Below are positions 1,153-18,800 of a stretch of DNA of 32,000 nt, piece after piece (position 1 is the stretch's first letter; the number at the start of each line of letters is the position of its first letter). The notes below the pieces were generated by a model. It did not search any database, had not been told where the DNA came from, and was given only the letters and a program-made list of their open reading frames with translations. The position numbers and the translations under genes were made by a program. Source of the DNA: Cylindrospermopsis raciborskii Cr2010 (GTDB lineage Bacteria; Cyanobacteriota; Cyanobacteriia; Cyanobacteriales; Nostocaceae). The stretch is from the NCBI RefSeq assembly GCF_003367075.2, contig NZ_CP065936.1:1740001-1772000 (forward strand). Reading direction: 5' to 3'.

Positions 1153-2343
1153 TTAGCGGACAGAAATAAATTGTGGTTGTATACTAAAATTTTCAGTGGC
1201 TTTAATTACTTCTTGTCTAGCCCACCTATCTGCTACCAGGATATCCTCTAAAGAAGGATGAGACTGGTTCTGATGGCGATCGCACACCAATTCAATACAG
1301 CGAGCAATATCCAAATAGCCAATTTTTTCTTCTAAAAATAGTGCTACAGCTTGTTCATTAGCTGCATTTAAAACAGCGGGCATAGATCCACCTGCTCTAC
1401 CAGCGGAATAAGCTAAACCCATACAAGGGTATTTGTGATGGTCTGGTTCGCGAAAAGTCAAAGTTCCGCATTTGACTAAATCCAGCCTTTGCCAATTGGT
1501 GTAAATTCTTTCTGGCCAAGACAAAGCATAAAGTAAAGGTAGGCGCATATCTGGCCAACCCAACTGAGCTAAAACAGAGGTATCTTGTAACTCAATTAAA
1601 GAATGAATAATACTTTGGGGATGAATAACAATTTCGATGTCATTGTAGTTCATACCAAATAAATAATGGGCCTCAATAACTTCCAACCCCTTATTCATCA
1701 AAGTTGCTGAATCCACAGTAATTTTTTTACCCATAGACCAGTTAGGATGTTTAAGAGCGTCTGCAACTTTAACTGTAGGTAATTGTTCCACTGGCCAATC
1801 TCTAAAAGCTCCCCCGGAAGCGGTCAACAAAATCTTTTTTAAACCAGCTGGGGGTACACCTTGTAAGCATTGAAAAATAGCGGAATGTTCCGAATCAGCA
1901 GGTAATAACTTGACCCCGTGTTTTTGTACTAGGGGTAAAACCACTGGGCCACCAGCAATTAAAGTTTCTTTATTTGCTAGAGCAATATCCTTACCCGCTT
2001 CAATAGCAGCGATAGTGGGGAGTAAACCCGCACAACCGACGATTCCAGTAACTACCGTTTGGGAGTCACCATAACGAGCGACTTCCACCACACCTGCTTC
2101 CCCGGATAGTAAAATAGGTTGGGGGTAGATATCTTTGATAGCTTCCTCCAGCTCCTGTAACTTATCAGCACAGGAGATAGCAGCTATTTGGGGACGAAAC
2201 TGGCGGATTTGCGCTGCAAATAACTCTACATTACGTCCAGCAGCAAGACCAACTATGCGAAACTTGTCTGGATGCTCAGAAACGATATCTAAGGTCTGAG
2301 TACCAATAGAACCAGTAGAACCTAGAAGAGTTATAGCTTTCAC
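1153..2343 (-). CDS. dxr: 1-deoxy-D-xylulose-5-phosphate reductoisomerase
   Basis: Full-length Dxr signature: '[18 protein letters not shown]' NADPH-binding N-terminus, 'LANKE', '[10 protein letters not shown]' and '[10 protein letters not shown]'. I place the start at GTG 2343 ([14 protein letters not shown]). The longest ORF runs to another GTG at 2400 and adds 19 residues that look non-conserved. Confidence 0.93.
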
Positions 2344-2783
2344 AATGATTGAACAATTTACGGATACTCCTAATTTTAAGCTTCTCCGGTCTAAAGACAC
2401 GGAGATTTCTGAAGAGTCTATAAACGAACTTTCTGAGGCTGGCTTAAACAGCCTCTACTGATTCTGCTAAAATTAATTCTTAGCATTACCGCTACTTTAA
2501 GTTGATTTCGAAAGTATAGCCTCAGATAAGACTTACTTGTCAATAGCAGCCACAAAATAACATAAAGACAACACTGGAATATTGAAGATCCGCATCACGG
2601 TTAAATATCAAGGCGAATAAATTCGCCGTTGGCACTTCCTGTCTAAAGCCAATTCTATAACTGTAGCCACCTGCAAGGATTATAACGCCCATCCAGGAGC
2701 CATATTTTATTAAAAGCAATAAATTCTTTAGTATTTGGTAATATCTAATATGTTTTGTTTATGTTTAATTCTCTTGTTTATAT

Positions 2784-4127
2784 ATGACCAAGGGTCAATT
2801 TGCCGGTTACAAACCAATTAATCACAAGCTGTTTAGTTACAACTTCATTAGTAATTATCTTGGTAGGGATAACATATATTTCCCTGTAGTTGTATGGCTA
2901 TTGAGTCGGCTCATGATTTGGGCAGGAATGTTGCTAATTGCACCTAGCATATCAATAACGGATAACAGCGTTTTTGAGCATGGTACATGGAGTATTTTTG
3001 ACGCTTGGGACAGTGTGCATTATCGGGCGATCGCCACTAGTGGTTACGAGTTTTACCCTGATGGTCAACAATATAATCTAGCTTTTTTTCCTATGTTTCC
3101 CCTAACCATTTGGGTTTTAATGAAACTCGGGTTACCTTTTGAAATAGCTGGTTTATTAATCAACAATTTGTCTTTTTTAGGAGCGGTTTACCTATTATAT
3201 TTTTGGGTTAAAAAACATTGTAGTTTAAGGATAGCGCAATGGACAATTATAGTCATTTGTTGTTGTCCCATGTCCATGTTTACGGGGGTAATTTACACAG
3301 AAGGATTATATTTATTATTCAGCATTGGTTGTTTAAGAGCTTTTGATGAAGAAAAATATAGCTTAACTGCCTTTTGGGGAGCTATGGCAACTGCTACACG
3401 TCCTACGGGAATGGCTTTAATTCCTGCTTTATTGCTGACTGCTTGGAGACAAAGGCGGGGTAAAATAGCCTATTTTACCAGTTTGTTAACTGCTACTGGG
3501 TTAATATTATTTAGCATATATTGTGCGATTAATTTTCATGATCCCTTAGCCTTTATTGCTGCTCAAAAAGGATGGCGACCATCTCTTGGTTTTGATTGGC
3601 AAGGTTGGTTAAATATGTTGATGCAAATTATTTTGGGGAGAAATTGGAATTTTGGGTGGGTATGGAACGATGATGGAGGAATTAGGGATCCTTGGTATCC
3701 CGTATTTTTTGGTTTTATGGTTTATGGCACAGTCACTTTGTGGTTGCGGCAAAAATATTGGCATCCCTTCATGATATATTTGGTTTATACCACATTAGCA
3801 GTGTTATTGATTTTAGTGGATCAGAGGGTGATCAACAATTTGCTCAATGTTTTAATGGTGGTAGGTGGTAGTTATTTAGTGTGGCATTTTCGTCGCAAAC
3901 TCACACCTGTCATGGTCATTTATAGTTTGTGTGGAGTCGGTTTATTATTAGCTTCTGGAGGAACCATCTCTTTAAGTCGTCTAGCTTATGGTATTGTTCC
4001 TTTAAGCATTGCTATTGGTGCTTGGTTGTCCCGATTTCCCCGTCAAGCTTATCTATCTGTCGGTTTATTTGTGGTTTTACTCTTTAGGTTAGCTATAGGA
4101 TTCGCTCAACATCATTGGGTGGGTTAA
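2784..4127 (+). CDS. Polytopic membrane glycosyltransferase, PIG-V / Mannosyl_trans2-like (GT-C fold candidate)
   Basis: 447 aa and highly hydrophobic. The first-loop motif 'FDAWDSVHYRAIATSGYEF...YNLAFFPMFPL' matches the W-D-x-x-x-Y-x-x-I-A-x-x-G-Y ... AFFP(L/M)(Y/F)P pattern of PIG-V-like mannosyltransferases. It is a paralogue of the 5744-7006 gene. Confidence 0.7.
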   Translation: MTKGQFAGYKPINHKLFSYNFISNYLGRDNIYFPVVVWLLSRLMIWAGMLLIAPSISITDNSVFEHGTWSIFDAWDSVHYRAIATSGYEFYPDGQQYNLAFFPMFPLTIWVLMKLGLPFEIAGLLINNLSFLGAVYLLYFWVKKHCSLRIAQWTIIVICCCPMSMFTGVIYTEGLYLLFSIGCLRAFDEEKYSLTAFWGAMATATRPTGMALIPALLLTAWRQRRGKIAYFTSLLTATGLILFSIYCAINFHDPLAFIAAQKGWRPSLGFDWQGWLNMLMQIILGRNWNFGWVWNDDGGIRDPWYPVFFGFMVYGTVTLWLRQKYWHPFMIYLVYTTLAVLLILVDQRVINNLLNVLMVVGGSYLVWHFRRKLTPVMVIYSLCGVGLLLASGGTISLSRLAYGIVPLSIAIGAWLSRFPRQAYLSVGLFVVLLFRLAIGFAQHHWVG

Positions 4128-4181
4128 AGTATGGAAGCTTATTGAAGTTTAATTATTGATTCGAGTGAGTATAAATCAAAC

Positions 4182-5735
4182 ATGAATTTTTTTTGGAATC
4201 TGCTGACTCAGAATAATACTGTATTTGCCAAAATTCTAACAGGGTTATTTTTTATAGTTGGACTACCTGCTATACTTCATCATGCTATGTGGCGTGATGA
4301 ACTGAATGTTTGGTTGATTGTTAGGGAAAGTCAGTCCTTATTGGAATTATTCCATCACATTCATTATGAGGGACATCCTTTTGTTTGGTATGTTTGTTTA
4401 GCGATTTTAAGACAATTTACAACTAATCCTGTAATCATGCAAGTATTTCACTTGTGTTTAGCCACATTGTCAGTCTATGTGTTTACCAGATATTCACCAT
4501 TTAGTTATTTTCAAAAATTGTTGTTTTGCTTGGGCTATATTCCTTTTTATGAATATTTACTAATCAGCAGAAATTATGCTATAGGACTATTACTAGTTTT
4601 TATATTTTGTAGTCTCTATTCTAGTCGTCAACAGAGTTACCTTAAATTGGCAGTGGTTTTATTTTTTATGGCTAATGTTAATGCTTATTGTTTATTATTG
4701 GCAATAGCATTTAGTCTAACGTTGGTAATAGAATATATTTGTAGGCAATTTTTACATCTAAATCTTGTGGCTAAAAAACATGATATAGTTGTAAGTAGTT
4801 TAATAATTTCCCTGGGTATTATTATCTCATTTCTACAGCTGATTCCGCCCCAAGATAGTAACTTGGCTGGAGGGTTATCCGGGTTTGTATTAAACTTTGA
4901 CTTTAACCATTTAACTAAGACTTTAGTTAGATTATGGAATAGTTATATTATTGTTGTTTTAGCTAATGAATCTGAACAATTCAGTCTCATTCTACTTTCT
5001 GTTTTGTCCATAATATTTTTTCTGGTTTTCAGCATTTCTTTCATAGTCAGACCAATTATTTTATTTCTTTACATAGTGGGAACAATGGAGATACTTGTAT
5101 TTACTTATGTTAAATTTTTAGGTAGCCCACGTCATTATGGACATTTATATATTTTGTTAATTGTCTGTATCTGGCTTAGTAGTTATTATCATTCATTATT
5201 TTCCTTATCAAGCGTAACTGTTTTACCAAAAACAGTAGTTCAAGCAGCAAAACTGAAAAAGTCATATTATAATATAGCAATTATGGTAATTTTATATTGC
5301 CAAATGGTAGGGGGAGTATTTGCTTTTAGTCGAGATATTATTATTCCTTTCTCATCTAGTAAGGAAGCATCTGCTTATATCAAAGACCAATATCAAGATA
5401 AATTAAATGACTTGTTTATTGTTGGTAGTAGAGATTATGCCATATCCCCAATTTCTGCATATATTAATCGTCAGATTTATTACCCGGAAATCTCAAAAAT
5501 GGGCAGTTTTGTTTTATTCACCACTAAGAGGAAGGAGATTAATCATATAGAAGTTCTAAGCCAAGTAAATCAAATATGCCAAAAAGAATTAAATCCATTA
5601 CTTTTGATTTTAAATAGACCTTTGGAACTCAACCATGCTAAATTGAAGATTGATTTGATTGAGAAGTTTACTAAGGGGTTTATTTATGATGAGCGATATT
5701 ATTTGTACTCTGTTACAAAACGAACTGTTGAGTAA
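4182..5735 (+). CDS. Polytopic membrane protein with C-terminal soluble domain; divergent GT-C/PMT_2-like glycosyltransferase candidate
   Basis: 517 aa with roughly 12 hydrophobic segments and then about 130 soluble residues. 'MWRDELNVW' in the first loop and 'YEGHPFVWY' resemble the (W)xDE ... HPPLYY pattern of ArnT/PMT_2-type enzymes. The family assignment is tentative. Confidence 0.55.
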   Translation: MNFFWNLLTQNNTVFAKILTGLFFIVGLPAILHHAMWRDELNVWLIVRESQSLLELFHHIHYEGHPFVWYVCLAILRQFTTNPVIMQVFHLCLATLSVYVFTRYSPFSYFQKLLFCLGYIPFYEYLLISRNYAIGLLLVFIFCSLYSSRQQSYLKLAVVLFFMANVNAYCLLLAIAFSLTLVIEYICRQFLHLNLVAKKHDIVVSSLIISLGIIISFLQLIPPQDSNLAGGLSGFVLNFDFNHLTKTLVRLWNSYIIVVLANESEQFSLILLSVLSIIFFLVFSISFIVRPIILFLYIVGTMEILVFTYVKFLGSPRHYGHLYILLIVCIWLSSYYHSLFSLSSVTVLPKTVVQAAKLKKSYYNIAIMVILYCQMVGGVFAFSRDIIIPFSSSKEASAYIKDQYQDKLNDLFIVGSRDYAISPISAYINRQIYYPEISKMGSFVLFTTKRKEINHIEVLSQVNQICQKELNPLLLILNRPLELNHAKLKIDLIEKFTKGFIYDERYYLYSVTKRTVE

Positions 5736-5743
5736 GATTTTTA

Positions 5744-7006
5744 TTAAGCTACCCATAAACCTTGGGCAAATCTAATTGATGAAGTAATTAACATAATTAT
5801 AAACCACAATATAATGAAGTAGTTCAGTTTAACATGACGGGATAAAAATATTCCCCAACATATTGCCAAAGAAACACAACCATAAGCGAATCTGTTAATG
5901 GACATTGTTCTCCCGGTAGCAAAAATAATAAATAAACTAAATATTCCATAAAATAGGATAGTCGGGGAAATTATTTGACGATAATGCCATAATAAATAAG
6001 CACCACCAAAAACTAGTAAAGAATTGAAAAATTCATCACCCGACAAAAGCCATAAAACAATTATCCCAGCAATCATACCATAGCTGAATTTGTAATTACC
6101 TGTCCGCCTAACTTTCCACCAACAATAATAAATTAAACCCACACCAAGAGCAAATATAAGAGGATAGATAATATCAACCAACCTACCTGATTTATAATTT
6201 GCCCAACCGAAAAACATGGGTAAGAATATTTTTAACCACAAATAACCCAACTTTTCCTGTCCTTCTTGAGTCCATGCTTTTTGTACTAATAAAAATGCCA
6301 AAGGTTGATCAAACTTAATTTTTAAATACCCCATATAAAAGATTAAACCTAATCCAGTTAACAGGGCGGCGATATAAGCGGTTAATTTTCTTTTTTCTTG
6401 CCAACAAACAATTAAATATGTAGGAATTATAGCCAAAGAATTTAGTCTAGTTGCTGTTAATAACATTCCAAAAATAGACGACTTTAAAACATCTGGTTTC
6501 GTCCAGTAAGTTAGGGTCAAGGTGCTCAAGCATAAAAATAAACCTTCTGTATAGACCACACTACAATATAATGAAATCGGACAGAAAGATAAAAATGCTA
6601 TAGTCCATTTAGCTATATTTATGTCATGTTTTTTTGCTAAGTAGTGAAATAAAATAATTAGGGCAATTAGAAAAGCTGTATTACTAATTATAATTCCTGC
6701 TATCTTAGGTTCAAAACCTATAAGTTTACTGAAATATATCAGAGTGGGATATAAGGGGAAAAATGCCACATTATAACCTTTTTCATCATTAGCAAATTGG
6801 TAACCATGTTCAACTATATTCAAATAAAAGTTACAATCAAATCTAATAAAAACATCCCAGGAAAAAGTCGCCCTAATGTCTTTAACCGGTTGAGGTAGTA
6901 ATGGTGCTATTCCCAGCATTGATACCCAAATAATTATGCGACTTGATAACCACATAAAGAAGGGAAAATAGGACTTATTCGCTTTGTTGACTAAATACTT
7001 CATCAT
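5744..7006 (-). CDS. Polytopic membrane glycosyltransferase, PIG-V / Mannosyl_trans2-like (second paralogue)
   Basis: 420 aa. 'FDCNFYLNIVEHGYQF...YNVAFFPLYP' and the C-terminal 'RFAYG...RFAQGLWV' run parallel to 'RLAYG...GFAQHHWV' in the 2784-4127 product. Its ATG overlaps the stop of the upstream 535-aa gene (ATGA at 7003-7006), which suggests translational coupling. Confidence 0.7.
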   Translation of the reverse strand: MMKYLVNKANKSYFPFFMWLSSRIIIWVSMLGIAPLLPQPVKDIRATFSWDVFIRFDCNFYLNIVEHGYQFANDEKGYNVAFFPLYPTLIYFSKLIGFEPKIAGIIISNTAFLIALIILFHYLAKKHDINIAKWTIAFLSFCPISLYCSVVYTEGLFLCLSTLTLTYWTKPDVLKSSIFGMLLTATRLNSLAIIPTYLIVCWQEKRKLTAYIAALLTGLGLIFYMGYLKIKFDQPLAFLLVQKAWTQEGQEKLGYLWLKIFLPMFFGWANYKSGRLVDIIYPLIFALGVGLIYYCWWKVRRTGNYKFSYGMIAGIIVLWLLSGDEFFNSLLVFGGAYLLWHYRQIISPTILFYGIFSLFIIFATGRTMSINRFAYGCVSLAICWGIFLSRHVKLNYFIILWFIIMLITSSIRFAQGLWVA

Positions 7007-8610
7007 AGTTTATTGGTAGATGAACTTGGACTCGTTGGCGCAATTAATCTAAATCCTTGGGATTTTCCTAGGACTCGACTATTTTTTAAGTTGATTTTAC
7101 CTAAATCCTCTTCATTCACTAACAAAAAAGAGTGAGAAGAAAACTTATCTACTAAATCCCCAAGAGAGGTGGGGATAATCTGACAATCACTATAGAAATC
7201 CAAACTGGGACGACTATCAGGAAAAGAAGTATATATTTTTTGCCCCGCTGGAATATGTTGACGAATTAAACCTGCTACTGGTTGGACAGGGAATTTTTCA
7301 TTCAATTCCCACACCCAAGATTGGGAAATCATCAGCAGTGTTAAAACCAAATACATTCCCCCAAATAAAACCGGGATAAATTGACGACTGTGCTGAGAAA
7401 TAAACCACGATGTGATAACCATACTGATTGTCAACACCACGCTCATAAGAATCAATGGAACCTGGCGGTCAAATAAACTAAAATAAATACAACCCCCCAC
7501 ACCAGCAACTGATAAAAATATAAAAAATCCTATTAAAAATTTAATTGTTAATGGGGTTTTTAAAAACTTACCAAGACTATGTTCCTCCCAGGTATAACTT
7601 AAATTAACACCAACTGCCAAAGCCAAAAATGGATATATGGGCATGATATACCAAGGTAATTTGGTACTCATTAAAGAAACTATAGTAAAATAAATGACCG
7701 TACCAATAAATACTAAAGATCCCCAAGGAGTTTGACGGTTTTTCCAACTTAAATATAATCCTCCGGGGAAAAATAACAGCCAGGGAAAACCATATTTAAT
7801 TATCTCCAGTAAATAATACCAAACAGGGCCAGTATTACCCTCCACTGCTGTTCCTAGTCTATCAAAAGCCTGATCTTCAAAATGCACCTTGAGAAAGGTA
7901 TCACCATAATGTTGCCATTGGGCTATATACCAACCTAAAGCAGGAAAATTCCCTAAAAATATCCCTATCCAAAAGTATGGGTTTCTCAGTAGATCTAGTT
8001 GTTTATTAGCAATGACAAATGTCCCACTAATTAGCACAAATACCATTACCAACATACCCTTTGTCAGAGTAACTAACCCTAGACAAAATCCTATGCCAAT
8101 AGCATATCTTTTATTATCTCTTGCTTTTAAAACACAGAATAAAAGCATTAGAAAAAAGGAAATTGCCATTCCGTCTAACATTGCCAGTCTACCATGACGT
8201 ACCACTGGTAATAATGTTAAATAAACTAGGCTGGAAAATAAAGCTGGTGGGGTTTTTAAAAACACTAATCTCCCAATTAAGTAGATTAGGGGAACTCCTA
8301 AAGCAGTTAAAAACGCTGCGGGAAATCTGGTTGTAAATTCTCCCACTCCCCCTAGGTGATAACAGATGGCTATTAACCATTGCATTAAAGGGGGTTTGAG
8401 CAAAAAAGGAGACCTCTGTAAGGTGGGATAAAACCAGTTACCAGTACGGTAAATTTCTCTAGCAACTATACCGTATGTTCCCTCATCCCAGTCTCTTAAT
8501 GGTAGGTTCCCTAAACCTACTAGCCATAAGGTCAGTGAGAGGAATAATAATCCTAGCACTATCCATTTGTCACCCATTTCTATTTGAGATTGTCTTGGAA
8601 ATTTTAACAT
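7003..8610 (-). CDS. ArnT/PMT_2-like (GT39/GT83-type) lipid-carrier-dependent glycosyltransferase
   Basis: 535 aa. 'LPLRDWDEGTYGIVAREI' is the first-periplasmic-loop D-E motif. It has about 12 TM segments and a C-terminal soluble region. An internal ATG (MGDKW, 11 codons downstream) is a possible alternative start. Confidence 0.75.
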   Translation of the reverse strand: MLKFPRQSQIEMGDKWIVLGLLFLSLTLWLVGLGNLPLRDWDEGTYGIVAREIYRTGNWFYPTLQRSPFLLKPPLMQWLIAICYHLGGVGEFTTRFPAAFLTALGVPLIYLIGRLVFLKTPPALFSSLVYLTLLPVVRHGRLAMLDGMAISFFLMLLFCVLKARDNKRYAIGIGFCLGLVTLTKGMLVMVFVLISGTFVIANKQLDLLRNPYFWIGIFLGNFPALGWYIAQWQHYGDTFLKVHFEDQAFDRLGTAVEGNTGPVWYYLLEIIKYGFPWLLFFPGGLYLSWKNRQTPWGSLVFIGTVIYFTIVSLMSTKLPWYIMPIYPFLALAVGVNLSYTWEEHSLGKFLKTPLTIKFLIGFFIFLSVAGVGGCIYFSLFDRQVPLILMSVVLTISMVITSWFISQHSRQFIPVLFGGMYLVLTLLMISQSWVWELNEKFPVQPVAGLIRQHIPAGQKIYTSFPDSRPSLDFYSDCQIIPTSLGDLVDKFSSHSFLLVNEEDLGKINLKNSRVLGKSQGFRLIAPTSPSSSTNKL

Positions 8611-8699
8611 TTGATTTAAGTAGATTATTCCATTAGATATATTTGATGGTTGAAATTAGAAATTTCCGTTTCATTAGTTACTTCCCAGTCAATAAATCA
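8575..8699. repeat. Copy A of a duplicated intergenic/gene-end segment (matches 10540-10633 joined directly to 13156-13187)
   Basis: Aligned by eye. 8575-8667 vs 10540-10633 shows 7 substitutions plus 1 indel over about 93 bp. 8668-8699 vs 13156-13187 shows 1 mismatch in 32 bp. On the minus strand, copy A contains 'atgaaacg' joined to 'gaaatttctaa', which are the first 8 nt and last 11 nt of the 846-aa gene. The remaining ORF (8674 down to 8633) is 13 codons. Confidence 0.85.
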
Positions 8700-8774
8700 T
8701 TATAGCAGTTGAAGCAAGAGATTCAGGATAGGATACAACTACACCGTGCTGACTGAACTGGGAAAGGAATTAGA

Positions 8775-10445
8775 GTGAAAATTCATAAATGGGCGATCGC
8801 CATATTATTGTGGGGTTTTGTTTTTCGGATGACTTGTGCGATCTATCTCAATACAGGCCTTGACGAAGCTTACTATTACCTGTATACCCAAAATCTCGAC
8901 TGGAGCTATTTCGATCATCCGCCCCTTGTCGCTTTTACTACAGGAATAGGCGTATGGCTGACAGGTGAAGTGACACCATTTACGATCAGAATTGGTGGAG
9001 TTGTACTGTATACAGGAACCCTAATTTTTTCCTATTTAGCTAGTCGCAAACTATTTGGTGATCGCGTCGCCACATTAACTTTAGTAATTTTGACGACTAT
9101 TCCGATTTTCCAAATTGCCTTTGGGATTCTCACACTACCAGACAACGCCTTAATGTTTTTCTGGAGTATCTGTTTGTGGCTGTGTGCTACTGAATTTTTT
9201 CCCTCTGGTGAGTCCTATGACCCTATTTATGACACAAGGCCCTATAGACCCACTTATAAACTTGCGCTTGTTGGCTTGCTAGTGGGCCTATCATTTTTAG
9301 GGAAGTATCATGGAGCATTGCTAGGCTGCGGCTTAGTTTTGTTTTGCCTGATTAGTAATCGATACCGTTGCGCTCTATTCTCCATCTGGACATTGGTAGC
9401 AGTCGTGCTATTTCTCATTGCCATTTCCCCCGTGCTGTATTGGAACTCACAGCATGAATGGACTTCTTTTCGATTCCAAAGTGGTCGTGCAGTTCCTTCT
9501 GTTGGCTATAATCTGGAACGTCTTTTAGTCACAATTTTAGTGGGGATTGGCTATCTATTTCCTACTTTTGGCTTTCCAATCTGGTGGACAAGTTTCCGTA
9601 CCTTTTGGGAGTGGTTACCCTTCAATAAATCTCAAACCCCTTCTAATTATGCTCATACTAAGAACATAGAACCAGAGGCGATCATGATAAATCAGCTTGC
9701 TCATGATCTAGTGGTTCAAAAGCGCTTGCTGATATTATGTGTGTCGATGCCAATCTTCTTTGGTTTTACCTTTATGGGTGGCTTTATCCAAATCCTTCCC
9801 TCATGGCATATGCCCGGATTTTTTGGGGCCACACTTTTGTTAGGCGAACGTGCAGCATTAGTGCAAGTCAAGCGTCCCAAATTTATCCGCAATTGGCTTT
9901 GGGGTTCGGGAATGGTAATTTTGCCACTGTTGCTCATTAGCTTGCTCCATATCCATTGGGGTATCGCGCAGAAGGGAGGCAATGTGGCGATCGCCGGCGG
10001 ATTCTGGGAAGCTAAGGATGATCCTTCCACGCAAATGATTGATATTGAACAGTTACGACAAGCATTTTTGGATTCACCTGACTTAAAAGCGGAATTAGAA
10101 AAAGCAGATTTTGTCTTTAGCAATAATTTCTTTGTAGCGGGACAAGTGGGTATGGCGATTGAGCCTCTCGGCAAAAAAGTGACCTGTTTCGACGAGGATT
10201 TGAGAGGTTTTGCTTATTGGAGTCAGGCCACAGATTTTGTTGGCAAAACTTCTCTGTATGTCACTTCTGAGCAGTTTATGATGGATGAGCACTTTCCGCA
10301 ACCGCTAGATAAATATAAAGGTTACTTTAAATCCTTAGAAAAGATTGCTGATATCGCCATTAAGCGAGGTGGGCAAGCTGTTCAGATTTTCCCAGTCTAT
10401 CGTGCTTCCCCCATGCTCAAACCCTATCCCAGACCCTATGGTTAA
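8775..10445 (+). CDS. ArnT/PMT_2-like (GT39/GT83-type) lipid-carrier-dependent glycosyltransferase
   Basis: 556 aa with a GTG start. 'GLDEAYYYLYTQNLDWSYFDHPPL' is the classic DE...HPPL signature of the ArnT/PMT_2 family. A polytopic N-terminal two-thirds is followed by a soluble C-terminal domain. It looks more GC-rich than neighbouring GT-C genes and contains two HIP1 sites. Confidence 0.8.
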   Translation: MKIHKWAIAILLWGFVFRMTCAIYLNTGLDEAYYYLYTQNLDWSYFDHPPLVAFTTGIGVWLTGEVTPFTIRIGGVVLYTGTLIFSYLASRKLFGDRVATLTLVILTTIPIFQIAFGILTLPDNALMFFWSICLWLCATEFFPSGESYDPIYDTRPYRPTYKLALVGLLVGLSFLGKYHGALLGCGLVLFCLISNRYRCALFSIWTLVAVVLFLIAISPVLYWNSQHEWTSFRFQSGRAVPSVGYNLERLLVTILVGIGYLFPTFGFPIWWTSFRTFWEWLPFNKSQTPSNYAHTKNIEPEAIMINQLAHDLVVQKRLLILCVSMPIFFGFTFMGGFIQILPSWHMPGFFGATLLLGERAALVQVKRPKFIRNWLWGSGMVILPLLLISLLHIHWGIAQKGGNVAIAGGFWEAKDDPSTQMIDIEQLRQAFLDSPDLKAELEKADFVFSNNFFVAGQVGMAIEPLGKKVTCFDEDLRGFAYWSQATDFVGKTSLYVTSEQFMMDEHFPQPLDKYKGYFKSLEKIADIAIKRGGQAVQIFPVYRASPMLKPYPRPYG

Positions 10446-10470
10446 ATGAAAGCTCTAACTTAACTGGACA

Positions 10471-10490
10471 GGTTCGGAGACCGTTTTTTT
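10471..10490 (+). terminator. Weak intrinsic terminator candidate after the 556-aa gene
   Basis: Short stem (ggtt/gacc with a cgga loop) followed by g plus a 7-T run, 26 nt after the stop codon. The stem is weak. Confidence 0.35.
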
Positions 10491-10497
10491 AATCTGT

Positions 10498-10528
10498 GGT
10501 TGGGTTGAGGAACGAAACCCAACACCCC
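10498..10528 (+). repeat. Short dispersed hairpin repeat, copy 1 (GGTTGGGTTGA-N5-GAAACCCAACACCCC)
   Basis: 8-bp stem gttgggtt/aacccaac with a 9-nt loop. It matches 14743-14773 exactly apart from the five loop bases. Confidence 0.8.
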
Positions 10529-10539
10529 CATGGGTAACT

Positions 10540-10633
10540 CATTTCTATTTGAGATTGTTTTGGAAATTTTAACATGTGATTTTAAGTAGATCATTCCATT
10601 GGATGAATTTGATAGTTGAAATTAGAAATTTCC
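10540..10633. repeat. Copy B of the duplicated segment; carries an orphan 5' fragment of a 535-aa-gene paralogue and overlaps the 3' end of the 846-aa gene
   Basis: The minus strand reads ATG TTA AAA TTT CCA AAA CAA TCT CAA ATA GAA ATG (MLKFPKQSQIEM). The intact gene at 8610 begins MLKFPRQSQIEM. After that the frame runs into the hairpin repeat and stops after 28 codons. Confidence 0.85.
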
Positions 10634-13162
10634 AACAATTGGTAGAAACTTCATGACATTTGTAATTGTTTTTAAAGTTTTTAACTCTGGTATATCTGGT
10701 TGGAGTTTTTCCGCTGTAACTAGATTTTTTTCTGCTTGTCTTGGTTGAAAGTTATAGAGATGCACAAATCCCAAATAAATCCAAGCATAGGGATTTTGGG
10801 AATCGTATTGAGTTATCTGAGTTAAGTTCTGTATTAACTCTGGTACTTGACGCTGCAAAAGTTGTGATAGGGCTAGGGTATACCGCCAATTTAGATTATT
10901 GGGTTCAGCTTGTAAATAATAATTGGCAGCAGTTTTGATCTGCTTGAGGTAATCTTGGGTTGGATCATACTGGTTGAAGTTGTCTATTTGGATAAATAGG
11001 TTCTCTAACTTACCCTGCTGAAATTCCATTGCCAATTGGGACATGCGAGAAACTAAATCCAAAGGTGGGGTTCTGTTTATTTTTTTGGGAGACGTGATAT
11101 CCTTTTGAATGTTCACAGTATAATTGATGTTATTTAGGGGTGTAATTTTTCCACTTTTTCTATCTACATAAAGTGCTGAAAGTTGATATTTTCCGGTTGG
11201 TAATGTTTGAGGAACAAAGGTAGATAGATTCTCTGTGACGCGGAAATTTCCCCCAGGATCACATTTTATACCACAATATAAATTTCCTAGGGCAATTCCG
11301 TGGTCATGATACCATGCTGATTTTCCATTTTGCCATTTTAGCAGTAACACGCCATTTTGTAACTTATCCCATGAACCGGTTATTTTATAGGTTATGGGGT
11401 TATTTTGATTGACAGTAAACTCATCGTTGAAAATGACTGTTTCTAGGTTAACTGGGTTCTGATCAGCTTGATCATAGCCCAGTTTCTCAACGACTATGTG
11501 GGGATTTACGCGATGATACAGTCGTAGTTTATTTCCTTGGGGTAATAGCCAATCGCTCTGCAATTTTAAGTCGGGAGAAGACTCTACCAAAAATTTGAGT
11601 TGACGTTTAGTTTCTCCCCTTTCTCCTGGTTCATCTGGTTCATTTTCCTTAGTTACATACCAGGACAAATACTGTAAATCCTGATCCATTTGAGATAATT
11701 TCATCGTTAGTTTTCTTCCATATACCCGAAAGTCAGCCAAGGTCCCAAAATAATCCAGGGTAAATTCATTAACTTCTGCTGTTGAAACTGGTATTACTCC
11801 CAAGGTGTTTCTTAAATATGGTGTGGTTTGGTTGATTGTTGTAATTAGCTCGCCCAGGGGATACTTTTTACTCTCGTCGCTGGGCAAATGTCTTCCACCC
11901 CAACTCTGAATCAGGGGGAGGGGAAATAAATTATTGATTAAAACAAGACTCCCTAATCCTATAGTTAATAATCTCAATCTATCAAACCATATATTTTGAA
12001 CTAAATTAAAGAAATAAGCAAGAATTACACTAATTACTGGAAGGCAAGGAAGAATAAATCTAATGTCTTTATTTGTACCCAGAGAAGAAATTATATAGCT
12101 GCTAATTAGAAAAATAAGTAACCAATTTACGGATGCTTGATTAAAGGTTAAATGAGATAGGTTAGATAGGTTATTTATAGGATTTTTACTAATATGGTTA
12201 AGGTCATGTTCACCAATCTGTTTGGTGATCTGTTTAATAATAAACACCAAGAAAACACCAATGCTAATAAATAATATGGGATATCCCACGCTTTCAGGAA
12301 TAGTTTGGGGATAATACATCCATCCAGCAATGGTGTTAAAAGTGGGATCTCCTTCGTTTTTACCCACATTGTTGGCATTTAATGCGGAAGTGATAATGGT
12401 TAACCAATTTAATCTGTACCAAAATCCACAAATCAACCAAGCAACTAGCAAAGACAACCCTGCTTGAATCAATTTGGTGATTTTTTCAGGGACTTTTAAT
12501 TTAGGAGCTTTTCTATTCCAAAGAAAACCAGTTAATGTCCAAACACCCGGAACAAAAAGGAAGATAAATCCTGTTGGTTTTGATAACATGATCAATCCTA
12601 TTCCTATCCCCAAAATCACCGTTAGGATCCATGATAAAAATCCAGTATGACGATCTTTCCACAATGTTAAAATCGTAAATGTCAAGATCACAACTGCTGT
12701 TAAACCATAATCTAGTAAATAATCTGTCCGCATGATTCCCAAAATGGGAAATAACAAGCAAAATATACTAGCTGTAATCCCAACTTTCCCATGAGGAAAT
12801 AAATAATTCCCCAAATAATATACGGAAAATATAATTATACCTGTATAGAATAAATTTACTAAAGTAGCTTGGTCATATCCCCTACCAAACAGTAAAAAAA
12901 ATGGTACTGTACAAATATATATAAATGGAGCTCGGTAACTGGGCGTTAACTCCCACAAGGATAACCACCAATTACCTGAGAAAATATTTACATCCTGAAA
13001 GACCCGATAATGATGTAGTGCTGCTGTTAGATGGGCACTTTGATCCCAAGCAGGAATAGACTCGTCTAGTAACAACCATGTTCTGTCTATAATTAATCCT
13101 ATGAACCAAATTGAGAAAAGGATGATATAGTCCTTGTTAGCTTTCAGATACACCCGTTTCAT
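10622..13162 (-). CDS. Large GT-C-type glycosyltransferase fusion: ArnT/PMT_2-like polytopic N-domain, large soluble domain and TPR-like C-terminus
   Basis: 846 aa. '[10 protein letters not shown]' is a first-loop acidic motif. About 410 residues of TM segments are followed by a soluble region of roughly 300 aa. The helical-repeat tail ('[34 protein letters not shown]') is TPR-like. Confidence 0.7.
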
Positions 13163-13187
13163 TACTTACTTCCCAGTCAATAAATCA
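13156..13187. repeat. Upstream-flank repeat of the 846-aa gene (matches 8668-8699)
   Basis: gtttcattaCttacttcccagtcaataaatca vs gtttcattaGttacttcccagtcaataaatca. It covers the ATG of the 846-aa gene and most of the 41-bp divergent spacer to the GT2 gene. Confidence 0.85.
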
Positions 13188-13203
13188 GCAACAATATTTT
13201 AGC

Positions 13204-14166
13204 GTGAATCATCCCATCCACTCCCCCATCTACTCCTTAGTTGTCCCCATTTACAATGAAGAGGAAAACATTGAAGAAATGTACCGCCGTCTGAGCAATG
13301 TAATGGCCCAGTTGCAAGGCGAAGTTGAACTGATTTTAATAGATGATGGTAGTCGAGACCAGTCTTTGACCATGATTCGAAAACTACATCATCATGATAG
13401 TCGAGTTCGCTACTTGAGTCTAGCTAGAAATTTTGGTCATCAGATCGCGGTTACCGCAGGATTGAACTTTGTTCAGGGTCAAGCCATTATTGTTATGGAT
13501 GCTGATCTGCAAGACCCACCTGAATTAATCCTTTCTATGATTGATAAATGGCATGAAGGATATCAGGTGGTTTATGCTCAACGCATATCCCGTCATAAAG
13601 AAACTTGGTTCAAACGTCTCACAGCATACCTATTTTATCGCCTTTTACAACGTCTAGCTAAAGTAACCATTCCTGTAGATACGGGAGACTTTTGCCTAAT
13701 GGATAAACAAGTCGTAGATATTCTCAATGGGATGCCAGAACGTAACCGCTATATTCGTGGTTTACGTGCTTGGGTAGGATTTAAACAAACATCTGTAATG
13801 TTTGAAAGAAGTCCCCGCTATGCAGGAAAAGTTAAATATACCTTTAGTAAGTCCCTCTCTCTAGCAATTGATGGTATTATTTCATTTTCTACTGTTCCAT
13901 TAAGACTCGCAACTTATCTGGGCATTATTTCAGCTACTGTGGCTTTAATCATGATATTCCTGGTTCTATACTGGCGAATCTTTGCTCCTGTTTCCCAATT
14001 AATCGGGTACAGTCTGATTACAATTGCTATATTTTTCCTGGGATCAGTACAGCTGATTTGTATCGGGATTTTGGGAGAATATATTGGTAGGATTTATGAG
14101 GAAGTTAAAGCTCGTCCTTTGTATACCTTAAAAGAAACTGGTGGTTTTGACCCGCTAAATATCTAA
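13204..14166 (+). CDS. GT2 polyprenyl-phosphate glycosyltransferase (ArnC / GtrB / DPM1-like)
   Basis: 320 aa with a GTG start. '[13 protein letters not shown]', 'LIDDGSRD', '[12 protein letters not shown]' and two C-terminal TM helices give the typical architecture of Und-P/Dol-P sugar synthases. The sugar specificity cannot be read from the sequence. Confidence 0.85.
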
Positions 14167-14195
14167 TTCAGTTTATATTAACCCATAAACAATAT

Positions 14196-14579
14196 TTGAG
14201 GATAATTCCTGTGTCACCTCAAGAATTTACTTTACTCCTGTTCTCTGTTCTCATTAGTGTTACCGGACAATTTCTCCTGAAAACAGGAGCCCTGAAACTA
14301 GGTAAGGTTCACGCGGGGAACTTTATTACTCATATTCTCAACATGATTACTGTCCCCGAACTATTGTTGGGACTCGCATGTTATGGTGTGGGAGCAATAG
14401 CATATATTTTACTGCTTACCCGCGTTAATCTCAGTATCGCTGGTCCCGCTGTCTCCGTGGGTTATATTTTTTCAGTAATGATAGGTCTTCTGGTGTTTAA
14501 AGAATCTATGCCTCTTACCCGTATATTAGGATTGGGTTTTATTGTCACAGGAGTAATATTATTGGTTAGACCTAATTGA
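14196..14579 (+). CDS. Small 4-TM EamA/SMR-like membrane protein, ArnE/ArnF-like lipid-linked sugar flippase candidate
   Basis: 127 aa and four hydrophobic helices, 29 nt downstream of the GT2 gene. This matches the arnC...arnE/F and gtrB/gtrA pairing logic. The start is TTG 14196 or GTG 14211. Confidence 0.65.
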   Translation: MRIIPVSPQEFTLLLFSVLISVTGQFLLKTGALKLGKVHAGNFITHILNMITVPELLLGLACYGVGAIAYILLLTRVNLSIAGPAVSVGYIFSVMIGLLVFKESMPLTRILGLGFIVTGVILLVRPN

Positions 14580-14735
14580 TCTTCTTATTAGTAATTTTGC
14601 GGATGGATAGATCAATCTTGTGAAGAATAAGATGTAATCATAAAGAAGGTAATGAAGGGTACAACTTCATCACCAGTTGTTATTGCAAAATATCATTATC
14701 AACATTAAGTAGGTGGGTGAAATTAAATATAAGAT

Positions 14736-14773
14736 GAACGTAGGTTGGGTTGAAGTATGAAACCCAACACCCC
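14736..14773 (+). repeat. Short dispersed hairpin repeat, copy 2 (with left extension gaacgta)
   Basis: The core at 14743-14773 matches copy 1. The left 16 nt (14736-14751, gaacgtaggttgggtt) recur in inverted orientation at 15785-15800. Confidence 0.8.
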
Positions 14774-14848
14774 TATCGCCAACCCATCCTACAAATAATT
14801 GCGCCTCCCTACTTATCAATTTTATTTTAAACACTAAGGAGCTATGGA

Positions 14849-15754
14849 GTGGAAAATAAAAGGATATCTTTTTGTCCACAGGGAGTATTAGTTATATTAC
14901 TGTGCTTAATTGGTGCTTTGGGAAGTGGGTTAGTGTTGTTTTTAAAAACAACTGCTTCTCCACCTCAAAATGATAATAATACTCCTCCCAGAATTTCTTC
15001 TAAGTTTACTAATGGAAAATCTCTGGATAGGTTTAAGACTACCATGCTCACTACTTGGCACAAAGAAGCACAATCTAAGGGGATAATTCCTGACGTACCT
15101 TCCCAGTTCCAAGGAAAAGTTATTAAGTCAGCTATCTTACCTTCTAATACAAAGGTTATAGCGCTTACCTTTGACGATGGTCCCTGGCCCAAAAGTACGG
15201 CCCAGGTTCTGGATATTCTCAACAAAAATGATATTAAGGGCACTTTCTTCGTAGTTGGAAAAAATGTCCAGCGCTATCCCGATTTAACTAGACGTATAGT
15301 TAATGAGGGTCATTCTATAGCTAATCACACTTGGCATCATTGGTATCACGCCATGAATCCTCAAGTTGCTGCATACGAAGTTGCAAGCACTACAGATATT
15401 ATATTCAAAACTACAGGAGTGAAAACAGGACTGTTTCGTCCCCCCGGTGGTGCTATGACTAATGGAGTCGCATCCTATGCTAAAAATAATCAATATGCTG
15501 TTATTATGTGGTCTTCCGATTCCATAGACTACTCTCGTCCTAATCCTAAGAAAATTATTAGTAATGTTTTTAAAACAGCACAATCTGGAGGAATTGTGTT
15601 AATGCATGATGGAGGAGGAGATCGCTCTCATACTGTTAAAGCTTTACCACAAATTATTAATAAGTTTCGCAAGCAGGGCTACAGTTTTGTCACTGTTCCA
15701 CAATTGCTAGAAATGCAGGAGAAACCAAAACAGGTAGTTGCTAAGAAGAAATGA
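14849..15754 (+). CDS. Polysaccharide deacetylase, CE4 / NodB-homology family, with N-terminal membrane anchor or signal
   Basis: 'ALTFDDGPW' (motif 1, catalytic Asp and metal Asp), 'HSIANHTWHH' (motif 2, His-His), 'RPPGG' (motif 3) and 'LMHDGG'. The N-terminal hydrophobic segment is 'GVLVILLCLIGALGSGLVLFL'. GTG start. Confidence 0.85.
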   Translation: MENKRISFCPQGVLVILLCLIGALGSGLVLFLKTTASPPQNDNNTPPRISSKFTNGKSLDRFKTTMLTTWHKEAQSKGIIPDVPSQFQGKVIKSAILPSNTKVIALTFDDGPWPKSTAQVLDILNKNDIKGTFFVVGKNVQRYPDLTRRIVNEGHSIANHTWHHWYHAMNPQVAAYEVASTTDIIFKTTGVKTGLFRPPGGAMTNGVASYAKNNQYAVIMWSSDSIDYSRPNPKKIISNVFKTAQSGGIVLMHDGGGDRSHTVKALPQIINKFRKQGYSFVTVPQLLEMQEKPKQVVAKKK

Positions 15755-15784
15755 ACAGGGGAATCTAACTTCCCCCATGACTTG

Positions 15785-15800
15785 AACCCAACCTACGTTC
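15785..15800 (-). repeat. Partial inverted copy 3 of the hairpin repeat (left arm only)
   Basis: The reverse complement equals gaacgtaggttgggtt, a 16/16 match to 14736-14751. It overlaps the last codons and the TAG stop of the glutamate synthase gene. Confidence 0.65.
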
Positions 15801-18800
15801 TCATTTCTTTTGCATTAGCTTCTAAACTATCTGCTTCCGATGGCGGTACTACTTGCCAGAATTTAGGTAGGTATTCTTCCCATTTATTGAGAATTAATTG
15901 CGCTTTTTGAGATCCCGTGCGATCGCAGTGGGCTCTAATTAGGTCATACAACTGTTTTTTGCCTGCTTCGGTTACTACGGGCTGAAGTTTAACTATTGTC
16001 TTATTCACTAAGTCGGGGAAGCTACCATCTTCGTCTAAGAAGTAGGCCAGTCCTCCAGTCATTCCCGCACCAACGTTACGCCCTACTTTGCCCAAAACTA
16101 CCACTACCCCACCTGTCATATACTCACAACAGTGGTCTCCAGCTCCTTCAATTACTGCTGTACCTTTGGAATTACGCACTGCAAACCTTTCACCAGCTAA
16201 ACCACTAGCAAATAAAGCTCCTCCAGTCGCACCATAAAGACAGGTGTTACCAACAATCACGTTTTTACCTGCATCATAGTTAGCTCCCGCTGGGGGTTTA
16301 ATAATAATTTCCCCACCGTGCATCCCTTTACCTACATAATCATTAGCTTCCCCCTCTAGGGTTAGGGTTATCCCAGGCAAAATAAACGCTCCAAAACTCT
16401 GTCCTACACTACCTTGGAAATTTAAGTTTATCTGCCCTTCAAAACCAGAATCACCGTATTTAGATGCGATCGCACCTGCTAATCTTGATCCTACGGTTCT
16501 ATCGGTGTTTACAACTTTGTAGGTTTTGGTGACTGTAGCTTGATTGGTGATGGTTGTTTGAATATCCTCATCAGCCAAAATTCTGTTGTCTAGAACTTCT
16601 CCATTACTGTGAACTTCTTCATGGGTTAACCAAGTACGATTTGATCTAGTATCTGGTAACTTAGTTAAACAGTCTAAATTGACAGATTGGGTTTTGGTTA
16701 ACTGGACATGGGAACGTTTAGTTAATAGGTCTGCTCTACCAGTCAATTCGTTTAGGGAACGATATCCCAGGTTGGCCAGTAAACTCCGAACCTCTTCTGC
16801 TATAAAATAGAAGAAGTTTACCACATGTTCGGGAATACCCGTAAACCTTTGACGTAGTTCTTCTTTTTGGGTAGCTACACCTTTGGGACATGTGTTTAAA
16901 TGACACACCCGCGCCATAATACAACCCTCGGCAATCATTGCTATAGACCCAAAACCAAATTCTTCTGCACCCATTAAAGCAGCAACTACAACATCCCAAC
17001 CACTTTTGATGCCACCATCAACCCTTAAAACTACGCGATCGCGCAGCCCGTTATCCATCAGTACCCGATGCACTTCGGTTAATCCGAGTTCCCATGGGCT
17101 ACCCGCATGTTTAATAGAACTCAAGGGAGAAGCTCCAGTACCTCCATCATGACCAGAAATTTGGATAACATCAGCATTAGCTTTGGCCACACCTGCTGCA
17201 ATTGTCCCAATACCAATTTCTGCCACCAATTTTACCGAAACCTTTGCTTTGGGATTAATTTGATGCAGGTCAAAAATCAACTGTGCTAAATCCTCAATCG
17301 AATAAATATCATGATGGGGGGGTGGAGAAATCAAAGTTACACCCGGTTTAGAACGTCGCAACATAGCAATGTAAGGACTCACTTTCGGTCCGGGTAGCTG
17401 TCCACCTTCACCGGGTTTTGCACCCTGGGCAATTTTGATTTCTAACTGTTTAGCACTGGCTAAATATCCCGGTGTTACGCCAAAACGACCGGAAGCTATC
17501 TGTTTAATGGCACTGGAAGCCGTATCACCATTTTTCAAGCCATTTAAATGAGGTAAAGTCAGTGAATGCCCATTTTCATCCACATCCTTTAACACCCCAT
17601 AACGCACTGGATCTTCCCCACCTTCCCCAGAATTGGACTTACCACCAATACGATTCATGGCAATGGCTAGATTTTCATGGGCTTCCCGTGATAATGCTCC
17701 TAAAGACATCCCACCAGTACAGAAACGTTTAGCAATATCACTGACACTTTCCACCTCTTCTAAATCTATCTTCGAGCGATCGCTATTAAAGTCCAATAAA
17801 TCTCTCAAAGCGGTAGTTGGTCTGGTTTGCAAGTGGTGTTTATAAACCTGATAATGGTCATACTGCTTACCATCTACAGCTTTATGTAAAGCTTTCACCA
17901 ATTCTGGATTATTACTATGATATTCTCCACCGGGGCGAAACTGAACAAATCCCAGGTTCTCCAACTTCTTCGTTGATAATTCGGGGAAGGCCTTACTGTG
18001 GAAAGAAAGCACCTCCTGAGCTAATTCCCCACAACTGATACCACCAATACGCGATGTAGTGCCTTTAAAACCTAACTTAATTAGATCCTCACCAATACCA
18101 ATGGCTTCAAAAATTTGTGCTGCTTGATAACTAGAAAGCAGGGAAATTCCCATTTTAGAAAGGATCTTCAACAAACCGGACTCCACCGCTTGACGATAAT
18201 TGGCAACTGCTTGCTCCAGGGAAATATCATTTAACTTACCCCGCTCTCGCAACTGCTGGGTTCTAGGATCAAGCCACCAATCACGCACCGTGTCCAAGGC
18301 CATATATGGACAAACCGCACCCGCACCGTAGCCCAACAAACAGGCAAAATGATGGGTACTCCAACACTGGGCGGTGTGCACCACCAAGGAGGTTTTCATT
18401 CTGATTCCCTGGCTAATTAAGTAGTGATGTACCGCACCCACAGCTAATAATGGTGGAATATAACTTAAATTAGCATTAATTCCTTTTTGACCATCCAGAG
18501 CAATTTTATCACTCAGGATTAGGATTTTTGCTCCTGCTCGCACAGACTCTGCTGCTTGTTTTTGCAAAGACTCCACAGCTACCTTTAATCCTTCCGGACC
18601 TCCATCAATAGCAAATAGGGTAGATATTTCAGCTGTACCAAATCCACACAATTTAATTGCTTCCAAATCCCCATCGGTCAAAACGGGTGAGTCTAATCTT
18701 AATCTTTGATCTCCTCCCGATTGAGGATCTAATAAATTTCCCCTTTCCCCTAGTTCCACTGTTAAGGACATCACCAATTTTTCCCGTAGGGGGTCAATGG

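Follow-up and report, generated by a model that had tools for sequence, protein, structure and literature searches.

The interval between dxr and glsF in Cylindrospermopsis raciborskii Cr2010 (contig NZ_CP065936.1; the 32,000 nucleotides from 1,740,001 to 1,772,000 are referred to as the window) probably encodes a Gtr-type multi-component transmembrane glycosylation system. The interval contains a GtrB-like glycosyltransferase (GT2), a small candidate flippase, a CE4 deacetylase and six polytopic proteins (O1 to O6) assigned to the GT-C glycosyltransferases. The gain, rearrangement and loss of single GT-C genes argue that these act as independent, dispensable decorators and not as an obligatory assembly line. 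The island takes up the entire interval from dxr to glsF. A first-pass annotation, made from the nucleotide sequence alone, had listed nine open reading frames (ORFs) in it, and all nine were confirmed with exactly the same coordinates and strands. The features, by position in the window, are as follows (aa, amino acids; TM, transmembrane):

1153..2400, reverse strand: dxr, the left anchor, recognised by synteny with other loci
2784..4127, forward strand: O1, PIG-V-like (Mannosyl_trans2/GT76-type) GT-C, 447 aa (Pfam PF04188, 3.8e-10)
4182..5735, forward strand: O2, predicted GT-C with a WRDE...EGHP motif, 517 aa (AlphaFold2 model and Foldseek)
5744..7006, reverse strand: O3, second PIG-V-like GT-C, 420 aa, a paralog of O1; overlaps O4 by 4 nt (O4-O3 operon)
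7003..8610, reverse strand: O4, ArnT/PMT_2-type GT-C, 535 aa (PMT_2, 6e-16; PMT, 7e-10)
8563..8699, reverse strand: chimeric junction upstream of the live O4 (repeat families D1-D3, three-way alignment)
8775..10445, forward strand: O5, PMT_2-type GT-C, 556 aa (PMT_2, 4e-15)
10528..10621, reverse strand: relic of an ancestral O6-O4 junction downstream of O6, comprising the spacer and a dead duplicate of the ~16 initial O4 codons
10622..13162, reverse strand: O6, large predicted GT-C, 846 aa (AlphaFold2 model and Foldseek; domains of homologs)
13163..13203, no strand: divergent intergenic region between O6 and GT2, 41 nt, partly duplicated upstream of O4
13204..14166, forward strand: GT2, GtrB-type polyprenyl-phosphate hexosyltransferase by similarity, 320 aa (Glycos_transf_2, 2e-34; PDB 5ekp, 8e-98)
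14196..14579, forward strand: candidate flippase, a small 4-TM, ArnE/F-like half-size EamA/DMT protein, 122-127 aa (weak ArnE/F matches)
14849..15754, forward strand: CE4 deacetylase, membrane-anchored, 301 aa (Polysacc_deac_1, 3e-35)
15793..20433, reverse strand: glsF, ferredoxin-dependent glutamate synthase, the right anchor, recognised by synteny with other loci

All six polytopic proteins, proposed as GT-C candidates in the first-pass annotation, were assigned to that fold: O1, O3, O4 and O5 by Pfam matches or paralogy, and O2 and O6 by AlphaFold2 (AF2) models searched with Foldseek. A placement of most of them outside the GT-C fold was looked for with profile and structure searches and did not occur. 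O1, with about ten TM helices, matched PF04188 at 40.1 bits (gathering cut-off 22.4) over residues 61-214 only (profile positions 48-207 of 443), and this match carries no implication of mannose specificity or of a glycosylphosphatidylinositol acceptor. Its ortholog is the dxr-proximal PIG-V-like gene of other Nostocales (49-56% identity). O3 had no Pfam match and belongs to the PIG-V family only via O1, of which it is a full-length paralog (33% identity, 1e-76). O4 matched the NCBIfam ArnT model at 2e-33, under its cut-off, and the ArnT structure 5ezm by sequence at 7e-16, while sequence searches of the PDB with O1, O2, O5 and O6 found nothing meaningful. The acidic first-loop residues pointed out in the first-pass annotation were invariant in homologs wherever families were aligned: D76 in 21 PIG-V-like island homologs of the O1/O3 type, in which the loop-1 motif W75-D76...Y80 is conserved, W37-R38-D39-E40 in 57 homologs of O2, and D33 and D40 in 54 homologs of O6. 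The acidic loop-1 motifs of O4 (RDWDE) and O5 (LDE) were read off single sequences only.

O2 had no match in Pfam, NCBIfam or the PDB, the last searched with both the sequence and the family profile. Its AF2 model (pLDDT 87.8, pTM 0.89) retrieved GT-C proteins from the PDB as its 15 best Foldseek matches (DPY19, STT3, AftA, EmbA/B/C, ArnT and ALG3), all with a probability of about 1.0, and at the 16th match the probability fell to 0.08. The O2 family comprised 6482 representatives at E<=1e-3 (50% clustering). One of them, a protein of 1324 aa (P0473), is fused to a YfhO-type GT-C region and is thus a natural fusion of two GT-C families. O6 consists of a membrane domain (residues 1-421), a periplasmic alpha/beta domain, a beta-sandwich (572-686) and a TPR domain (703-838). 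It had no significant Pfam match, and full-length homologs of 40% identity carry PMT_2, PMT or Glyco_transf_22. With the O6 model (pLDDT 89, pTM 0.89) Foldseek found ArnT first (5f15, 1.8e-7, TM 0.59), followed by ALG12, Pmt4 and STT3, and the C-terminal region matched TPR and Ig-like folds. The O6 family profile had only a weak ArnT match in the PDB (0.004) besides TPR, and in NCBIfam O6 had a weak PrsT-like TPR match. Orthologs of O6 across Nostocales were 65-73% identical. Homologs of both O2 and O6 are named “RgtA/B/C/D-like domain” in UniRef. Profile-profile comparison found no similarity between the two families, which are related at fold level only. Eukaryotic TMTC O-mannosyltransferases act on protein substrates; the periplasmic alpha/beta, beta-sandwich and TPR domains of O6 are compatible with polysaccharide handling or, as in TMTC, with protein substrates.

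On the donor side, GT2 contains a Glycos_transf_2 domain (residues 11-171, 2e-34) with DDG and DAD motifs, followed by two C-terminal TM helices at about residues 231-289. Its nearest solved structure was Synechocystis GtrB (sll0501, PDB 5ekp), matched over the full length with 47% identity (8e-98), and phage bactoprenol glucosyltransferases such as the GtrB of epsilon34 were 42-44% identical over the whole protein. Matches to ArnC structures were weaker (2e-49 to 2e-45). In NCBIfam, PgfS scored best (4e-88) and ArnC reached 9e-54, both under their cut-offs. Since the matches to 5ekp and phage GtrB exceed those to ArnC, and both PgfS and ArnC remain under cut-off, GT2 was assigned to the GtrB family of polyprenyl-phosphate hexosyltransferases. 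GtrB converts UDP-glucose to undecaprenyl-phosphate-glucose (PMC12698845). Our best guess for the donor sugar, and the likeliest one, is glucose; an N-acetylhexosamine is a less likely alternative. PgfS-like enzymes may use other sugars.

Mannose, weakly suggested in the first-pass annotation, was considered as the donor sugar and rejected as unsupported. The nearest characterised relatives of GT2 are the bactoprenol glucosyltransferases, and archaeal dolichol-phosphate-mannose synthase matched its N-terminal domain only (6e-15). The phosphomannose-isomerase-type cupin that had been taken as a further clue to mannose lies beyond glsF and is part of the conserved flanking synteny. No tailoring enzymes for sugar nucleotides were detected with Pfam and NCBIfam profiles among island ORFs of at least 100 aa, in agreement with the first-pass annotation, and no ArnA or ArnB ORF was present between dxr and glsF. 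The latter absence, with Arn scores far under cut-off, bears out its view that the sugar is not 4-amino-4-deoxy-L-arabinose (Ara4N).

The candidate flippase starts 29 nt past GT2, an adjacency already noticed in the first-pass annotation, and it is the neighbour of GT2 in 12 related loci. It scored 6e-11 with ArnF, 9e-10 with ArnE, 2.6e-6 with EamA and 2.2e-6 with TMEM234, all at or below the curated cut-offs. In the CE4 deacetylase all five CE4 motifs were readable, including TFDDG, HTWHH, RPPGG and LMHDGG. A single N-terminal TM helix precedes the catalytic domain, which is predicted to be periplasmic. Its best NCBIfam matches were PdaB (2e-54) and PgdA (3e-48), of the peptidoglycan N-acetylglucosamine deacetylase type, and NCBIfam returned no ArnD match. 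The CE4 gene always adjoins glsF, even in loci without GT2. The label “Arn-like”, given to the island in the first-pass annotation, was thus upheld neither for GT2 nor for CE4.

Eighty loci encoding GT2 relatives were compared, with one genome per species and the 10-kb flanks of one match per species, together with the neighbourhoods of O6, O2 and O5 homologs. In heterocystous cyanobacteria the arrangement dxr ... CE4-glsF-NAGPA formed a conserved slot with changing content, and the locus was co-inherited with varying numbers of GT-C genes, as a synteny survey suggested in the first-pass annotation had been expected to reveal. Four examples illustrate the variation:

Anabaena WFMT (L010): GT22, DUF2079, O4, O6, GT2, flippase, CE4
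Atlanticothrix (L012): PIG-V-like, DUF2079, PMT_2, PIG-V-like, O4, GT2, flippase, CE4
Calothrix NIES-4101 (L016): methyltransferase, GT2, flippase, PIG-V-like, two CE4, PIG-V-like, DUF2079
Iningainema (L074): methyltransferase, GT2, flippase, PIG-V-like, DUF2079, unclassified 467-aa 11-TM protein, DUF2079, PIG-V-like, CE4

Related genomes had 1-6 GT-C genes in the slot. At least eight GT-C families occupied it across genera, namely PIG-V-like, DUF2079, Glyco_transf_22, PMT_2, O2-type, O6-type and two unclassified polytopic families, one of which bears a first-loop QDD motif. The commonest conserved trio in other genera was GT2-flippase-PIG-V-like, and that PIG-V-like subgroup is missing from the window. 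In a neighbour-joining tree the GT2s of the islands, including that of the window, formed a clade of 16 that left out GT2s standing alone in Nostoc, Microcystis and other genomes. These comparisons show a private GtrB/flippase lineage travelling with the GT-C slot. In most other Nostocales a class I S-adenosylmethionine (SAM) methyltransferase gene of about 247 aa stood directly upstream of the island-type GT2 (for example L017 9159-9905 and L074 9173-9913). It is absent from the window; this neighbour hints at methylated sugars in those other Nostocales.

One member of the island was acquired laterally, as a single gene, from a Pseudanabaena-like donor. Outside Cylindrospermopsis, the best relatives of O5 were Pseudanabaena proteins with 82-83% aa identity, and those in other Nostocales reached at most about 51%. 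The DNA of Pseudanabaena sp. Chao 1811 matched O5 with 76% identity along 1688 bp, a match bounded by the gene, and the GC content of O5 was 0.433 vs 0.30-0.37 in the neighbouring genes. Low GC was also weighed as a possible sign of foreign origin for O2 and O3, but it could be explained by their being T-rich membrane-protein genes with a strong AT skew. O5 was absent from the other Nostocales loci compared. No O5 homologs were found in phage genomes, and there was no evidence of cyanophages carrying the island GT-Cs.

The insertion of O5 has left a footprint in the window (8563-8699, 10528-10633 and 13124-13187). In other Nostocales O4 lies directly downstream of O6; in the window O5 stands between them, in the opposite orientation. 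The ancestral O6-O4 junction survives as a relic downstream of O6. The chimeric junction upstream of the live O4 joins two pieces: a duplicate of the 5′ region of O6 with its first three codons, and a segment holding the last four O6 codons with the stop, then the O6-O4 spacer and the start of O4. The insertion of O5 therefore split an operon of O6, O4 and O3, and O4-O3 is now preceded by a duplicate of the O6 promoter region. This duplicate presumably preserves the co-regulation of O6 with O4-O3.

Among conspecific strains the architecture of the island was constant and individual genes were damaged. O3 carried four different lesions: an insertion sequence (L001 1454-3802), a 47-nt tandem duplication (L093 6922-8231), indels (L095 6979-8232) and the loss of about 820 nt (L097 6008-8181). 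These are four independent inactivations. An insertion of about 170 nt interrupted O2 in L097, and O4 was split in strain CS-505. O1, O5, O6, GT2, the flippase gene and CE4 were intact by gene calls in the six strains compared. O3 was intact in the window and in L094, L096 and L098. The strains with a broken O3, O2 or O4 are natural knock-outs.

In the system that we propose, undecaprenyl phosphate would receive a hexose, taken by the GtrB-like GT2 from a UDP-sugar, on the cytoplasmic side of the membrane, and the small 4-TM protein encoded next to GT2, which is probably homodimeric, would flip the lipid-linked sugar to the periplasmic face. The GT-Cs would then each add single sugars, at one acceptor site or in one linkage, to envelope glycoconjugates. 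The acceptors could be the O-antigen or lipopolysaccharide (LPS) core, a sheath or exopolysaccharide, or proteins of the periplasm or the cell surface. In Nostocales the slot behaves as a diversification hot spot, in which GT-C genes are gained (O5), rearranged and lost (O3, O2 and O4). The analysis establishes the gene content, the GT-C fold of all six proteins, the GtrB homology, the synteny, the lateral transfer and the recurrent decay; we infer the feeding of the GT-Cs by the local donor, the flipping, the donor sugar, the acceptors and the selective driver, which may be phage or grazer pressure. A functional link within the island is supported by the 29-nt gap between GT2 and the flippase gene and by the divergence of O6 from GT2 over only 41 nt. 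It is also supported by co-occurrence: the candidate flippase was present in 12 of the 65 cyanobacterial GT2 loci, each of the 12 having one to five GT-C genes in its flank, and a GT-C gene was found at 7 of the 53 flippase-less loci (3 of the 7 being the same island cut by a contig end).

Several points weigh against such a system. The assignment of the flippase is a sub-threshold similarity, and the small 4-TM protein lies outside the GtrA family. The sugar specificity of GT2 is unreadable, because its identity to GtrB is 47% and its PgfS scores are similar. The literature yielded no experimental datum for any island gene or close homolog. The co-occurrence counts are phylogenetically non-independent, because the flippase-bearing loci all represent the same Nostocales island. 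The island genes alternate in orientation and form five transcription units or more. In Calothrix FACHB (L007) and Nostoc NIES-3756 (L008) the slot retains CE4, O6, O4 and other GT-Cs without GT2 and flippase, and in Pleurocapsa PCC 7327 an O2-type, a second O2-type, a DUF2079 and a PMT_2 gene form a co-directional array (L090 8330-14880) with no GT2 nearby. Since these three arrays lack a local GT2 and flippase, the GT-Cs need not depend on the island GT2 and can evidently work with a donor made elsewhere. With such arrays elsewhere, and with the island divided into separate transcription units, the supply of all six GT-Cs by one donor synthase, as envisaged in the first-pass annotation, is unproven.

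The same observations favour an explanation that we consider unlikely but worth serious attention, namely the accretion of unrelated GT-Cs at a recombination or insertion hot spot, with donors made elsewhere and the pathways unrelated. The local GT2 and flippase would then feed at most one or two GT-Cs, the obvious partner in other genera being the PIG-V-like gene directly after the flippase, whose subgroup the window lacks. It also fits accretion that O5 came alone, from a genome in which it has no GT2 neighbour. However, GT-C neighbours were found at every flippase-bearing locus, and the monophyletic lineage of island GT2s tracks the island. The 41-nt control region between O6 and GT2 is shared by both genes and has been copied ahead of O4-O3. 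Moreover, a lone acquired GT-C would most easily be useful by plugging into an existing donor pool. A sequential build-up of one oligo- or polysaccharide in the periplasm, comparable to mycobacterial mannan and arabinan or to mannosylation in the lumen of the endoplasmic reticulum, seems to us improbable. Distinct GT-C families do lie side by side (PIG-V-like, and ALG9-like in relatives), their eukaryotic namesakes work in ordered pathways, and a polymer under construction could be held by the beta-sandwich and TPR domains of O6. The turnover of members argues against it, since a pathway with obligatory order should not withstand such changes: gene content differs strongly between genera, single members are pseudogenes in otherwise healthy strains, and one member (O5) is a recent foreign addition. 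A stable GT-C complement of the mycobacterial type was likewise not found, as content varies by genus and members have been pseudogenised or laterally added within C. raciborskii. The first-pass annotation had left the choice between multi-step glycan building and multi-target glycosylation; with recurrent loss and lateral gain, an obligatory multi-step process is disfavoured and modular decoration is preferred. Hardly credible, finally, is an Arn-type modification of lipid A, in which an Ara4N-like amino sugar would be placed on undecaprenyl phosphate, deacylated by CE4, flipped by the ArnE/F-like protein and attached by the ArnT-like enzyme. It draws on the weak matches to ArnC, ArnE/F and ArnT models and on the nearby deacetylase. 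Against it, the NCBIfam scores fell far short of the cut-offs (ArnC 182.5 vs 529, ArnT 115.9 vs 567, ArnF 42.9 vs 99, ArnE 38.7 vs 92), GT2 was far closer to GtrB, and ArnA and ArnB were absent. CE4 matched PdaB and PgdA and not ArnD, its catalytic domain is predicted to be periplasmic from the one TM helix at the N-terminus, and it remains beside glsF where GT2 is absent. By these comparisons the Arn reading is largely refuted.

The position of the GT2-flippase pair in Calothrix FACHB (L007 8535-10000) and Nostoc NIES-3756 (L008 8795-9934) was taken by 1.2-1.5 kb of DNA with 26-31% GC and no ORF of at least 60 aa. No remnant of GT2 or of the flippase gene was detected in these gaps even at E=10, and the gap sequences were not conserved between the two genomes. 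Such long non-coding DNA is unusual for a bacterium. In Pleurocapsa PCC 7327 the GT-C array is followed by the gene of an Rce1-like membrane protease.

The Gtr-type system proposed for the window resembles the Gtr modules (GtrA-GtrB-Gtr[type]) of Shigella, Salmonella and their phages in having a GtrB-type GT2 followed by a small 4-TM flippase candidate, with GT-Cs acting from the periplasmic side as modular, horizontally mobile and non-essential decorators. Unlike those modules, it has six GT-Cs instead of one, its flippase candidate is ArnE/F/EamA-like and not of the GtrA family, and the locus is chromosomal and fixed, not prophage-borne. Firmicutes systems (CsbB/GtcA/YfhO; Listeria GttA-GtlB/GttB; Lactococcus lactis CsdAB/CD/EF with CflA; Streptococcus mutans PgfS/PgfM1/PgfM2) follow the same logic with shared components, and PgfS is the best NCBIfam match of the window GT2. 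Each GT-C there usually has its own GT-A, whereas the window has one GT-A per six GT-Cs, lacks a YfhO GT-C and belongs to a Gram-negative-type envelope. Listeria GttA feeds two GT-Cs, GtlB and GttB, and the L. lactis flippase CflA serves three GT-A/GT-C pairs (PMC8035078).

The Rgt enzymes of Rhizobium are a Gram-negative parallel, in which one polyprenyl-phosphate-sugar synthase provides for several ArnT-like GT-Cs with different LPS acceptor sites. The synthase RgtE feeds RgtA-C. It also supplies RgtD and RgtF, ArnT-like galacturonic acid (GalA) transferases (PMC7663294). The premise of the first-pass annotation that known systems have one GT-C each was therefore too narrow, because component sharing is documented in Listeria, L. 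lactis and Rhizobium, with GttA, CflA and RgtE each serving several partners (PMC8035078, PMC7663294). Unlike the window, however, the rgt genes are dispersed, belong to one family and transfer GalA; the window clusters at least four GT-C families unrelated in sequence, and its GT2 is GtrB-like. The Arn (PmrF) pathway of Ara4N shares with it a GT2, a small flippase and an ArnT-like GT-C (O4, against 5ezm), but the window is without ArnA, ArnB and ArnD, and every Arn model scores far under cut-off. As in the mycobacterial PimE/Emb/Aft arrays, many GT-Cs would use polyprenyl-phosphate sugars, and the structural neighbours of O2 include Emb and AftA. The mycobacterial enzymes assemble an essential polymer in fixed order, with decaprenyl-phosphate-arabinose and polyprenyl-phosphate-mannose as donors, in contrast to the fluid gene content and dispensable single genes of the window.

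The mechanism class is already established in enterobacteria, their phages and Firmicutes. New are the one-to-many architecture, the fixed hypervariable slot of Nostocales, the transfer between orders with recurrent decay, and the fold assignment for the O2-type family, which thereby gains a confident placement for more than 6000 representatives (50% clustering) without a Pfam model. Three-component glycosylation, mostly studied in enterobacteria and Firmicutes, would be extended to a one-to-many architecture in cyanobacteria. The locus offers a genetically tractable handle, with one synthase, one flippase and six transferases, on cyanobacterial envelope glycans. These glycans are poorly known, yet in species that form harmful blooms, such as C. 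raciborskii, they determine how phages adsorb, how cells are grazed and aggregate, and what properties the sheath has. O5 represents a recent lateral gain between co-occurring bloom-forming cyanobacteria of different orders. As a tentative extension, the dxr-glsF slot could be a dedicated glycan-diversification cassette site of heterocystous cyanobacteria, in which a private GtrB/flippase donor is combined with GT-Cs of at least eight families, several of them lacking a Pfam model, that are exchanged laterally, even with Pseudanabaena as a source, and recurrently lost, and the resulting strain-specific surface glycotypes govern the susceptibility of bloom-forming species to cyanophages or grazers. 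If this were true, the slot would do on the chromosome, and with several enzymes, what gtr seroconversion does from phages.

The proteins of the window were identical or nearly so to NCBI entries of Cylindrospermopsis (Raphidiopsis) raciborskii, and its flanks are typically cyanobacterial, with PsaL, DUF1815 and the str operon of ribosomal proteins with EF-G and EF-Tu. Public annotation of the island genes was generic (ArnT family, GT39, mannosyltransferase family or hypothetical). Nothing relevant was found in the literature on the locus, on cyanobacterial ArnT, GT39 or GT-C genes, or on the function of sll0501. Rfam detected no RNA families in the window, and a promoter and terminator scan of it was uninformative, promoter-like sites being no commoner than in shuffled sequences.

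Three gaps between genes of the island share a short dispersed hairpin repeat (GGTTGGGTTGA...GAAACCCAAC): the one after O5/O6 (10498-10542), the one between the flippase gene and CE4 (14743-14787) and the one between CE4 and glsF (15780-15800). The repeat may be a terminator or an element resembling repetitive extragenic palindromes or miniature inverted-repeat transposable elements. Beyond glsF, a 613-aa protein (20840-22681) has AMIN-like and NAGPA (phosphodiester glycosidase) domains and was kept beside glsF in all Nostocales loci examined. The NAGPA protein and CE4 form a cell-wall-related pair around a nitrogen-assimilation gene. An IS1-family transposase (28710-29402; DDE_Tnp_IS1, 1.7e-26) was inserted directly after the gene of ribosomal protein S10.

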